Shown here: piece by piece, positions 7,104 to 10,055 of the stretch
Layout of the letters: each line of letters opens with the position of its first letter
How positions within the stretch are numbered: position 1 is the first letter of the stretch
Source of the DNA: a virus
Lineage: Duplodnaviria > Heunggongvirae > Uroviricota > Caudoviricetes
Strand: one strand, 5' to 3'
Virus record (IMG/VR): IMGVR_UViG_3300029504_000072
DNA length: 13,090 nt
Position numbers and translations under genes: made by a program
The notes under the pieces: generated by a model
The model's database searches: none
What the model saw: the letters and a program-made list of their open reading frames with translations, nothing else
Told to the model about the DNA's origin: nothing

Positions 7104-8131
<1,028 letters not shown>

Positions 8132-8314
8132 ATTAATATTAAATCGGATTATTTTTAGCGCTGAATGTGAAATTTAAATAAAAAGGACTCTTCCATGAGT
8201 CAAAATCCTTGAAATCTTAAGGGTAAGATAAAAGGTCATTAGACAGAATGACACGTTTTATTAATAAATAAAGCTATTGTTTCATTCGTGTGTTTTTCTT
8301 TACAAAAGTAATCC

Positions 8315-8391
8315 TTGCTATGGTTGGTTAATCATGCGTTAATGGTGTTCTGGTTTGTTACAAAATTATCTGAAGCAGTCATTGTTATAAT
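8315..8391 (+). promoter_or_regulatory. Candidate promoter region for the cold-shock gene
   Basis: cspA-like -35 TTGCTA (8315-8320) with 17-bp spacer to -10 GTTAAT (8338-8343), preceded by an AT-rich UP-like tract; alternatively an extended -10 TGTTATAAT at 8383-8391. Either gives a long (about 95-145 nt) 5' UTR. Confidence 0.35.
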
Positions 8392-8494
8392 TTTATTATT
8401 TGTACCTCTTGAGATTTCCTTGTTGGTTTTTCTCTCTGATATTTTTTTTCGGACCATTCTGCCCAAGGGCTAACTTCTTCAAAAGGTAATAATG

Positions 8495-8707
8495 ATGTCT
8501 AACAAAATGACTGGTTTAGTGAAATGGTTTAACCCTGAAAAAGGTTTTGGTTTCATCACGCCGAAAGATGGTAGCAAAGATGTGTTTGTCCATTTCTCAG
8601 CTATTCAGAGCAACGATTTCAAAACGTTAACTGAGAATCAGGAAGTAGAATTTGGTATTGAGAACGGACCTAAAGGCCCCGCGGCTGTTCATGTTGTGGC
8701 ACTTTGA
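8495..8707 (+). CDS. cspI: CspA-family cold-shock protein (CspI-like, 70 aa)
   Basis: Cold-shock domain with RNP1/RNP2 motifs ([16 protein letters not shown]); protein [20 protein letters not shown]...; RBS AAGG at 8483-8486. Start taken at the second ATG (8495), not the track's 8492. Synteny with rz, gnsB and terminase fits the Qin cspI context. Confidence 0.9.
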
Positions 8708-8906
8708 GGTAGAAAATATTACAAACCATATTCACTTTAGATGCCCGTGTTGCCATGGTTCTCAGTATAGAACATCATCTTTTGATGTTTCTGACAGGAA
8801 TCCTTTCGGGGCAAAATGTATCTTTTGTAAATCAATGATGATTACATTTGATAATATTTCACAATACTTAAATGTTAGCCGTCTGTCGTTAGATTTAAGA
8901 AAGTGA
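8691..8906 (+). CDS. Hypothetical Zn-ribbon small protein (Ogr/Delta-like Cys spacing), overlaps the cspI 3' end
   Basis: 71-aa ORF from ATG 8691 (17-nt overlap with cspI); four-Cys motif CPCC-x21-CIFC; followed directly by a strong terminator. No good RBS, so possibly translationally coupled or not a gene. Confidence 0.3.
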
Positions 8907-8913
8907 AAATGAA

Positions 8914-8934
8914 GGCTCCTTCGGGAGCTTTTTT
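8914..8934 (+). terminator. Rho-independent terminator with UUCG tetraloop
   Basis: Stem GGCTCC / GGAGCT (one G-U pair), loop TTCG, then a T-run through 8934. Confidence 0.7.
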
Positions 8935-8978
8935 GCTTAGTGTCTAGTCGATGGATACTCACATATTACGGTAACATT

Positions 8979-9209
8979 ATGAAAAAAATAATAGTTTTTT
9001 TTAACTCTGAACCAGCAATGGTAGTGCCAGTGATGACCGGAGTTAACACCATCATGCGTGAATATCCAAATGGCGAAACAACACACCTCACTGTAATGGC
9101 TGCAGGGTTTCCATCTCTGACCGGAGATCATAAAGTCATTTATGTAGCAGCGGATCGACATGTAACTTCAGAAGAAATTCTGGAAGCAGCAATGAGACTC
9201 TTGAATTGA
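8979..9209 (+). CDS. Hypothetical 76-aa protein between cspI and gnsB (YnfN/YmcE-position gene)
   Basis: ATG at 8979 (the track's ORF starts at GTG 8940); product MKKIIVFFNSEPAMVVPVMTG...; assigned by position only. Confidence 0.45.
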   Translation: MKKIIVFFNSEPAMVVPVMTGVNTIMREYPNGETTHLTVMAAGFPSLTGDHKVIYVAADRHVTSEEILEAAMRLLN

Positions 9210-9303
9210 TTTGATTCTAATGCATTGATAATAAATGATAATCATCTTTATCTGTTTGTGTGAAATTTAGACCGTCGTATGTTGATTATTGCGATGTTTC
9301 ATC

Positions 9304-9332
9304 TTATCTTTTATACGCTTGCTCCATATAAT
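9304..9332 (+). promoter_or_regulatory. Candidate sigma70 promoter upstream of gnsB-like gene
   Basis: Consensus -10 TATAAT at 9327-9332, about 50 nt upstream of the start codon; -35 is weak (TTATCT). Confidence 0.3.
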
Positions 9333-9381
9333 TGACACTACTGTGTACCAGGAAAGTCATAACAGACTAAAAGAGGAAATG

Positions 9382-9555
9382 ATGAACATTGAAGAGTTAA
9401 AAACAAAAACAGAAGCAGATATTTCTGAATATATAACAAAAAAAATCATTGAGCTTAAGAAAAAGACCGGGAAAGAAGTTACCAGTATCCAGTTTACTGC
9501 ACGGGAAAAAATGACTGGTCTTGAAAGCTATGATATCAAGATTGATTTAATCTAG
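9382..9555 (+). CDS. gnsB: GnsA/GnsB-family small protein (57 aa)
   Basis: MNIEELKTKTEADISEYITKKIIELKKKTGKEVTSIQFTAREKMTGLESYDIKIDLI; RBS AAGAGGA at 9371-9377. True start is the internal ATG (9382, or 9379), not the track's 9289. Confidence 0.8.
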   Translation: MNIEELKTKTEADISEYITKKIIELKKKTGKEVTSIQFTAREKMTGLESYDIKIDLI

Positions 9556-9615
9556 TCTGTTTAGTATTAGCATCAATTTCTCATCAGATGCTATTCAACA
9601 ATACAAATTACCCAT

Positions 9616-9640
9616 AAACCTCGTTTTTACGGGGTTTTGT
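9616..9640 (+). terminator. Putative intrinsic terminator after the gnsB-like gene
   Basis: Stem ACCTCG / CGGGGT (one G-U pair), loop TTTTTA, then TTTTGTTATATTT. Confidence 0.4.
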
Positions 9641-9848
9641 TATATTTAAACATTACCGAATAGGTATAAATCTCGATTGTCGATGGTATTGGTTGTGTGA
9701 CAATACCTAGTCTTTCCGGTATGCCTGAAGAGAATACAAACGACAGATTATGTAAGGGAAACGCGCTGAATCTTTAACTCTTTCATGCTGAGTGATTTGA
9801 CGTTATATTTTTAGCCGTAAGTGAAGAGCAAACGCATGGAGCGACATA

Positions 9849-10055
9849 ATGCATAAAGATCAATACACTGATGCCCCCTCCCAGGAGCAGGTTCGTGTAA
9901 AAACTATGCTTAATAGCACCATTTCGATGGGTTACCCGGATGTTGTAATTGCATGTATAGAACATCAAGTGTCTCTGGAAGCATTCAGGGCAATTGAGGC
10001 CGCGTTAGTAAAGCACGATAAGAATACGAAGGATTATTCCCTGGTGGTTGACTGA
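9849..10055 (+). CDS. Hypothetical 68-aa protein
   Basis: GGAG at 9838-9841, 7 nt before the ATG; product [40 protein letters not shown]...; no family recognised. Confidence 0.45.

Follow-up and report, generated by a model that had tools for sequence, protein, structure and literature searches.

Gns proteins and their described partners

The small Gns proteins of Escherichia coli have been described in two contexts. Secondary sources list ymcE–gnsA as a type II toxin–antitoxin pair, citing Wei et al. (2015, BBRC 462:1) and Yamaguchi and Inouye (PMC8484670, PMC6265476, PMC10790755), and in one survey the partner of the GnsAB_toxin family was placed strictly upstream (PMC10790755). The first-pass annotation of the DNA analyzed here, which named ymcE–gnsA as a reported toxin–antitoxin-like module, is in line with these lists (PMC8484670, PMC6265476). 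The second context is lipid metabolism. According to the papers that cite the original work, gnsA and gnsB were identified as suppressors in multicopy, increasing the content of unsaturated fatty acids, and their overexpression in K-12 suppresses fabA6(Ts) and the cold sensitivity of secG-null mutants (Sugai 2001, cited in bioRxiv 10.1101/2024.03.27.586906 and PMC10607373; Sugai 2004, on the multicopy effects of both genes, is also cited in PMC10607373). Further examples are the rescue of ppGpp-deficient fadR mutants at low temperature by ASKA plasmids carrying gnsA or gnsB (bioRxiv 10.1101/2024.03.27.586906) and the rescue of lapC190 by gnsA overexpression (PMC10607373). Overexpression strains, as well as a deletion of gnsA, have also been constructed, with no difficulty reported (bioRxiv 10.1101/310961), and strains overexpressing gnsA or gnsB were viable in all three of these studies.

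The closest described relative of the locus analyzed here is found in the Qin prophage of K-12, where ynfN and gnsB (b1551–b1550) belong to the row cspI–ynfQ–ynfR–ynfN–gnsB. This prophage also carries relBE, a typical type II toxin–antitoxin operon. Other small genes of lambdoid late regions, namely cspB and cspF (Qin) and ydfK and ynaE (Qin and Rac), resemble ynfN in that transcriptomes show them increasing along with cspI and ynfN, although they belong to other protein families and are set apart from YnfN by the absence of common Pfam families.

Gene content of the prophage locus

In the window, that is, the whole stretch of 13,090 nucleotides that was analyzed, ynfN and gnsB are surrounded by the late region of a Qin-like E. 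coli lambdoid prophage (Table 1). The cassette cspI–ynfQ–ynfN–gnsB sits between lysis genes (Rz, DUF2514) and terminase genes, the small and then the large terminase subunit being encoded after the 68-aa ORF that lies downstream of gnsB. The stretch from 8300 to 9800 (1.5 kb) is present at a coverage of at least 80% in 2092 of 5426 complete E. coli genomes, the best matches among them being 99.8% identical, and at such a locus RefSeq gives the labels cspI, ynfQ/ymcF, ynfN, and gnsB in the same order. The cassette is also carried by the isolated phages HannyBb, mEp460, 2H10, Tritos, and PhiR63_1, and in Citrobacter, where the prophage has decayed, it persists fixed in the chromosome. Both ynfN and gnsB are known genes, previously named and annotated.

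Table 1. Features of the cold-shock cassette and its flanks, with positions in the window.
Feature	Position	Strand	Basis
Lysozyme	7104–7637		
Rz/DUF2514	7634–8131		
cspA-type thermoregulator, long cold-shock 5'UTR into the cspI coding sequence	8337–8753	+	Rfam RF01766, 112.3 bits (gathering 78), E = 2e-29, model 1–428
cspI, 70 aa	8495–8707	+	PF00313, E = 1.7e-31; RefSeq "cold shock protein CspI" at the equivalent position
ynfQ, YmcF-like small zinc-ribbon protein, 62 aa, annotated start ATT	8718–8906	+	PF23641 (YmcF-like), E = 7.9e-31; RefSeq "cold shock small protein YmcF"; homologue of K-12 ymcF
Intrinsic terminator hairpin between ynfQ and ynfN	8912–8934	+	GCTCC-TTCG-GGAGC, G-U/A-U extension, T6; read from the sequence
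ynfN, 76 codons, ATG start	8979–9209	+	
Promoter-like block in the ynfN–gnsB spacer	9280–9332	+	TTGATT (9282–9287), 17 nt, TATCTT (9305–9310); perfect TATAAT (9327–9332)
gnsB, 57 codons	9382–9555	+	GAGG Shine-Dalgarno at 9373–9376
Terminator-like hairpin downstream of gnsB	9616–9647	+	Terminator scan: 9-pair stem, 4-nt loop, T-rich tail
68-aa ORF	9849–10055		phrog_657

The two ORFs on which the first-pass annotation had focused are both present. The downstream one encodes an unambiguous Gns protein, GnsB, which matches PF08178 (GnsAB_toxin) over positions 1–54 of 54 (114.5 bits, cut-off 27; E = 2.1e-33), is 93% identical to K-12 GnsB (4 of 57 residues differ) and 65% identical to GnsA by BLASTP, and matches the solved GnsA chains 4XO1 and 4XO2 (E = 8e-20). 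In RefSeq it is labeled "GnsA/GnsB family addiction module toxin." The upstream one is a conserved gene and not a chance ORF, and the suggestion that it might be the YnfN counterpart was right: its product is full-length YnfN. It is 94% identical by BLASTP to K-12 YnfN over all 51 residues of the latter, which correspond to residues 26–76, it is matched by phrog_3425 from end to end (1–76 of 76; E = 1.1e-55), and RefSeq names the protein at this position "protein YnfN" (WP_000720960.1, 76 aa). The 76-codon frame is contained within an 89-codon GTG ORF starting at 8940. Between cspI and this gene lie the ymcF-like gene and a terminator, two elements that were absent from the earlier description.

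Compared with the Qin prophage of K-12, genes, order, and flanks (rrrQ/rzpQ upstream) are the same, and the DNA is 93% identical over 750 bp. The differences concern three points. In K-12 ynfN is frameshifted and annotated as 51 aa, whereas all 76 codons are in frame in the present prophage; ynfR, with 21 codons in K-12, meets a stop after 12 codons here; and the prophage analyzed here, unlike that of K-12, has retained terminase and portal genes.

Comparison with the chromosomal cspG locus

The locus had been proposed to mirror the chromosomal cspG–ymcE–gnsA locus, and this holds in part. DNA alignment with the K-12 cspG–ymcF–ymcE–gnsA region revealed homology of the csp gene, the ymcF-like gene, the hairpin with its T-run, about 15 nt of the gns ribosome-binding site, and gns, all of them in the same order and with a short block upstream of gns also in common. 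It does not hold for the small gene in the middle, since ynfN and ymcE are unrelated. The cspG locus is devoid of ynfN, and the prophage locus of a ymcE-like ORF; moreover, ymcE overlaps the 3' end of ymcF and the start of gnsA, whereas ynfN is free-standing, 172 bp away from gnsB. The distance from the terminator to the gns ribosome-binding site is about 170 bp in the cspG locus (a stretch that holds most of the ymcE ORF) versus about 440 bp here, the latter being made up of ynfN plus the 172-bp spacer. Relative to the chromosomal cspG locus, ynfN is an additional gene. The DNA counterpart of ymcE in the prophage is, according to the alignment, the terminator plus the non-coding leader of gnsB, and not the 76-aa ORF. 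In this leader, the block TGTTGATTATTG..TTTC (window 9280–9300) matches a block inside ymcE (2951–2970 of the K-12 cspG locus sequence), with a local alignment score of 25 compared with a mean of 16.9 (sd 2.5) for shuffled sequences.

At the protein level, treating YmcE and YnfN as a single family, as the first-pass annotation did, is not borne out. The BLASTP comparison that it had proposed for the 76-aa product succeeds for YnfN and gives no alignment with YmcE at E ≤ 100. Similarly, the NCBIfam model of YmcE (NF007379) recognizes YmcE with 187 bits and does not match the 76-aa protein at E ≤ 1, and none of the 49 YnfN loci of the species-representative genomes described below contains a YmcE-type sequence. 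A paralogous relationship was for this reason rejected; YnfN and YmcE are positional analogues, because no sequence similarity is detectable between them. The partner of Gns in prophages is therefore unrelated to the partner reported for the chromosomal gene.

Transcription of ynfN and gnsB

The hairpin that follows ynfQ has been kept, with compensatory changes in its stem, in the cspG locus, in Citrobacter, Raoultella, and Klebsiella, and in a divergent metagenomic gns locus (L158), and is for this reason considered a real terminator; the terminator scan called the hairpin on the minus strand. It overlaps the 12-codon remnant of ynfR (8909–8947). Only 44 nt separate it from the start of ynfN, so that this gene would be most simply expressed by read-through. 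Csp proteins are known as transcription antiterminators (Bae et al. 2000), which makes a cold-dependent read-through into ynfN plausible. Several published observations fit an expression of ynfN by read-through. For example, K-12 YnfR is encoded across the same terminator up to 5 nt from the long ynfN start, and its tagged version is strongly induced by cold (PMC6001520); ynfN mRNA follows cspI and cspB (PMC7406224); and the Tritos prophage expresses both YnfN and CspI in strain LF82 (PMC9928086).

The transcription of gnsB might be different. The spacer that separates it from ynfN (172 bp; 9210–9381) contains a promoter-like block, and the TGTTGATTATTG..TTTC portion of this block is common to the upstream region of gnsA (within ymcE) and to that of gns in Citrobacter, the rest of the spacer having diverged; in fact, it is the best-conserved part of the Citrobacter ynfN–gns spacer. 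A consensus promoter scan with a 9-of-12 threshold reported no plus-strand promoter in the spacer, and the gnsB promoter placed at this block is a prediction from conservation. One transcriptome study reports gnsA and gnsB as induced together and names neither ynfN nor ymcE alongside them (bioRxiv 10.1101/310961). These data suggest that gns forms a transcription unit of its own, common to the gnsA and gnsB paralogues.

Gene neighborhoods of ynfN and gns

The association between both genes was analyzed from each side. An alignment of nine YnfN sequences was used to find 49 species-representative genomes with a YnfN homologue, which span Escherichia, Citrobacter, Raoultella, Klebsiella, Enterobacter, Kluyvera, Scandinavium, Phytobacter, Kosakonia, and others. 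The most frequent architecture is csp–ymcF–ynfN (19 of the 49 loci), followed by csp–ymcF–ynfN–gns (14), csp–ynfN (5), ymcF–ynfN (4), ynfN–gns (4), and ynfN alone (3). Thus, csp is found upstream of ynfN in 38 loci and a ymcF-like gene in 37, gns lies downstream in 18 only, and in the remaining 31 of the 49 no gns was found within 3 kb. YnfN associates more tightly with csp and ymcF than with gns. In one island adjacent to icd, devoid of gns, two YnfN paralogues flank csp–ymcF. The prophages of Escherichia and Citrobacter nearly always carry ynfN and gns together.

From the side of gns, 80 metagenomic loci were inspected, which also provided the context of divergent Gns proteins. There, ymcE precedes gns only in near-identical cspG loci of E. 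coli, ynfN precedes it in the loci of prophages and of Citrobacter, and gns has neither of them in six others (L151–153 and L156–158): a DUF1471-like gene precedes it in L151 and L152, csp and an unrelated ORF stand beside it in L153, and no same-strand partner is present in L156 and L157. In L158, csp, ymcF, and the terminator are followed by 295 bp closed in three frames and then by gns, which adjoins appA; this locus looks like an orthologue of the cspG locus without ymcE. Gns genes have no constant partner.

Cold-adaptation morons or addiction module

The interpretation that best accommodates these results, to which we assign a probability of about 0.7, is that ynfN and gnsB belong to a prophage cassette of cold-shock morons and are each under their own control, as independently assorting cold-adaptation morons and not an addiction module. 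According to this interpretation, they would form the distal half of the four-gene cassette cspI–ynfQ–ynfN–gnsB. The ynfN gene would be the tail of the cold-induced cspI transcript, reached when transcription passes the leaky terminator that follows ynfQ, and gnsB would be a unit of its own, driven by the promoter-like spacer block that it shares with gnsA. GnsB would act like GnsA, both being presumably small helical-hairpin dimers, and raised levels of either would shift the membrane lipids toward unsaturated fatty acids and acidic phospholipids, allowing better growth in the cold. YnfN, in turn, would be a small β-rich protein of the cold-shock response, a partner of the csp/ymcF unit and no dedicated antidote of GnsB. 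The csp–ymcF–ynfN–gns row of Citrobacter is an example of prophage morons domesticated for cold adaptation.

The YnfN family is very small (52 clusters at 90% identity), its members are of about 75 aa and restricted to Enterobacteriaceae, and a profile search of 1.84 billion representatives (at 50% identity) returned 45 relatives, all of them small and YnfN-like, and no link to a larger family. Scans against Pfam, NCBIfam, and PADLOC assigned YnfN to no family, and no fold relatives were detectable. Its AlphaFold2 model (pLDDT 85.9, pTM 0.72) consists of five strands and a C-terminal helix. It might be speculated that YnfN represents an uncharacterized family, confined to Enterobacteriaceae and with a fold unlike solved structures, which forms the core of a mobile cassette made up of csp, the ymcF-like zinc ribbon, and YnfN; it would be expressed by cold-dependent terminator read-through and would act either with Csp and YmcF or as a non-homologous modulator of GnsB. 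We regard this proposal, taken as a whole, as doubtful.

It is rather improbable that YnfN has replaced YmcE as a non-homologous antitoxin that neutralizes GnsB by binding, so that the prophage would carry an addiction or persistence module analogous to YmcE–GnsA. Toxins can exchange unrelated antitoxins, and a small upstream gene (76 aa) followed by the supposed toxin (57 aa) would be consistent with a type II pair. Two small, adjacent, and co-oriented prophage genes with the supposed antidote first are also what operons such as relBE look like. In addition, Gns is filed as a toxin in both Pfam and RefSeq, the toxin–antitoxin lists and the survey quoted above include it with an upstream partner (PMC8484670, PMC6265476, PMC10790755), and the adjacency of ynfN and gns is consistent in Escherichia and Citrobacter prophages as well as in the fixed chromosomal remnant of Citrobacter. 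However, several features set this locus apart from type II operons. Instead of tight bicistronic linkage by overlap, coupling, or a gap of some tens of bases, there is a long spacer with its own conserved promoter-like element; YnfN has no recognizable DNA-binding or known antitoxin domain; and ynfN and gns each occur widely without the other, as in the 31 YnfN loci that have no gns within 3 kb and in the gns loci that have no partner ORF at all (L158; L156 and L157). Moreover, K-12 and 10 of 74 IMG/VR prophage loci combine a frameshifted ynfN with an intact gnsB, a natural situation in which the toxin would be left with, at most, a 51-aa YnfN product. Regulation points in the same direction, ynfN being co-regulated with cspI (PMC7406224) and gnsB with gnsA (bioRxiv 10.1101/310961). 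Finally, the Gns "toxin" was isolated, in the work cited above, as a beneficial multicopy suppressor, and strains overexpressing gnsA or gnsB grow. The spacer with its promoter-like block, the frameshifts, and the viability of the overexpression strains make a bicistronic addiction module unlikely, and there is little sign of a toxin–antitoxin pair in ynfN–gnsB. A coupled two-gene module of the kind suggested in the first-pass annotation finds no backing in this comparison, given the absence of gns from most YnfN loci, the partnerless gns genes, and the frameshifted ynfN alleles. These results raise doubts about the label "GnsA/GnsB family addiction module toxin," which spreads by automated annotation and through toxin–antitoxin surveys.

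A benefit for the phage and not for the cold adaptation of the host, for instance through superinfection exclusion, anti-defense, or the timing of lysis or packaging, would agree with the late-region site between Rz and terminase, with the occurrence of the genes in viable temperate phages, and with the assignment of YnfN and GnsB to PHROG families of unknown function. We consider it quite improbable, since none of the four small proteins has a match in PADLOC and there is a close linkage to a csp gene that carries a cold thermoregulator. The retention of the cassette as a chromosomal remnant in Citrobacter and in the E. coli cspG locus argues for a benefit to the host, and lipid phenotypes have been documented for Gns (bioRxiv 10.1101/2024.03.27.586906, PMC10607373).

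Length of YnfN

The cold-adaptation interpretation considers ynfN a functional gene of 76 codons, and its length deserves attention because the K-12 protein is annotated as starting at Met26. The gene contains two homopolymer runs, A7 (8982–8988) and T8 (8995–9002). In K-12 the second of them is T7, which shifts the frame of codons 1–25 and explains the annotation of a 51-aa protein. The state of both runs was determined in 74 IMG/VR loci obtained by a scan of viral contigs with GnsB, which returned only copies with 100% identical GnsB: 64 are A7/T8 (intact), five are A8/T8, and five are A7/T7. In phages, the 76-codon frame is intact in the eight genomes that carry ynfN. A fraction of the frameshifts could be sequencing errors. 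Besides, translation of the frameshifted alleles could still begin at Met26, 11 nt downstream of a GGAG motif, and yield the 51 C-terminal residues, and the frameshifts are consequently no proof of a loss of function.

The 76-aa form is the norm of the family, and the 51-aa YnfN of K-12 is a truncation caused by a frameshift. This is deduced from the length of the homologues (about 75 aa), from the conservation of Met1 and the N-terminal MKKVxVFFN motif in relatives down to 30–40% identity, from the Shine-Dalgarno sites preceding the equivalent start in other genera, which are better than the weak one of E. coli (GGT), from the intact phage frames, and from the AlphaFold2 model, in which residues 2–28 supply strands 1–3 (pLDDT 87–89). 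That the 76-aa ORF is non-functional here, either because only the 51-aa form of K-12 is real or because the gene is a decaying remnant, is hardly credible in view of this N-terminal conservation across many genera, the modeled strands, and the prevalence of the intact frame, even though the K-12 annotation, the weak Shine-Dalgarno site, and the frequent homopolymer frameshifts could be quoted in its favor. The correction is relevant to anyone studying YnfN in K-12, and it is, together with the linkage of the family to csp–ymcF rather than to gns, a by-product of the present analysis.

The ymcE reading frame

The position of ymcE in K-12 is peculiar. The ORF starts in the 3' end of ymcF, crosses the terminator hairpin (which it translates as the residues RLPRGAFFI) and the conserved block upstream of gns, and ends within gnsA; that is, it spans both the terminator and the TTGATTATTG block. 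Locus L158, which appears to be orthologous to the cspG locus, contains no counterpart of ymcE, and neither does any YnfN locus. Judging from this arrangement, ymcE may not be a protein-coding gene, and the annotated ORF may correspond to the terminator and the promoter and leader of gnsA read as a coding sequence.

Upstream Regions of gns and the ymcE Frame

A block formed by TGTTGATTATTG..TCTTTC and then TAT-type hexamers is conserved upstream of gnsB and gnsA as well as of gns in Citrobacter, at a distance of ~95-115 nt. Among the compared loci, the more distantly related gns genes (L135, L137, and L149-L153) have another conserved leader in common, TAGTCTATAAT...GTTATGGTT...CCAGAAGAGGT. 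This conservation suggests that gns genes have a promoter of their own, as well as a leader that is structured. In the K-12 locus cspG-ymcF-ymcE-gnsA, the ymcE ORF overlaps both the 3′ end of ymcF and the start of gnsA; its reading frame crosses the cspG-ymcF terminator hairpin, yielding the residues RLPRGAFFI, and then continues over the block conserved ahead of gns. In the corresponding stretch of the apparently orthologous csp-ymcF-gns locus beside appA (L158), each of the three frames is interrupted by stops. ymcE may be regulatory DNA rather than a protein gene.

Coordinates of the features discussed
Feature	Location	Remark
Conserved block upstream of gns	window 9280-9332; L002 (K-12 cspG locus) 2951-2970; Citrobacter loci L097-L103	
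K-12 ymcE	L002 2848-3078	outside the window
ynfR counterpart	window 8909-8947	12 codons
Homopolymer A7	window 8982-8988	inside start of ynfN
Homopolymer T8	window 8995-9002	inside start of ynfN
Two YnfN paralogues	L004 3037-3279 and 4001-4228	80 and 75 aa
68-aa ORF	window 9849-10055	phrog_657 (unknown function)

Small Frames of the Cassette

The terminator hairpin after ynfQ itself encodes the ynfR ORF, which in K-12 is cold-induced and 21 aa long; in the window, a TAG shortens this frame, and RefSeq labels the counterpart a "too short" pseudogene. The ynfQ/ymcF-like gene (window 8718-8906) has ATT as its first codon in RefSeq coordinates (ITNHIHF...), as in K-12, and a longer TTG ORF starts at 8652 and runs over the end of cspI. 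As for ynfN, both homopolymer runs at its start differ in length among strains. K-12 has T7, with a frameshift that leaves an annotated YnfN of 51 aa. Among the 74 IMG/VR prophage loci with identical GnsB, the state is A7/T8 in 64, A8/T8 in five, and A7/T7 in five. This variation could reflect pseudogenisation, slipped-strand switching, or sequencing error.

The Cassette in Other Loci

In an enterobacterial island adjoining icd (L004), a csp and a ymcF-like gene lie between two diverged YnfN paralogues, and gns is absent from this island. Another example is a chromosomal prophage remnant of Citrobacter braakii/freundii (L141-L148), composed of an Rz fragment, csp, a ymcF-like gene, a 76-aa YnfN, gns, and ynaM. 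Its site is fixed, with a FUSC-family gene on one side and a GH94 glucan gene on the other, and its gns is found on at least 1000 contigs, which suggests domestication of the cassette following prophage decay. Enterobacterial csp-ymcF-ynfN(-gns) sequence was also seen on contigs assigned outside the enterobacteria, namely a MAG labelled Veillonella parvula (L094) and Chryseobacterium sp. 18061 (L119), and one gnsB copy (L227) has unrelated DNA upstream; all three are probably binning contamination or chimeric assemblies. Downstream of gnsB, the 68-aa ORF, for which no Pfam family was found, lies ~469 bp away, a spacing that hardly any of the 80 prophage loci depart from, and may be part of the same moron region as gnsB.
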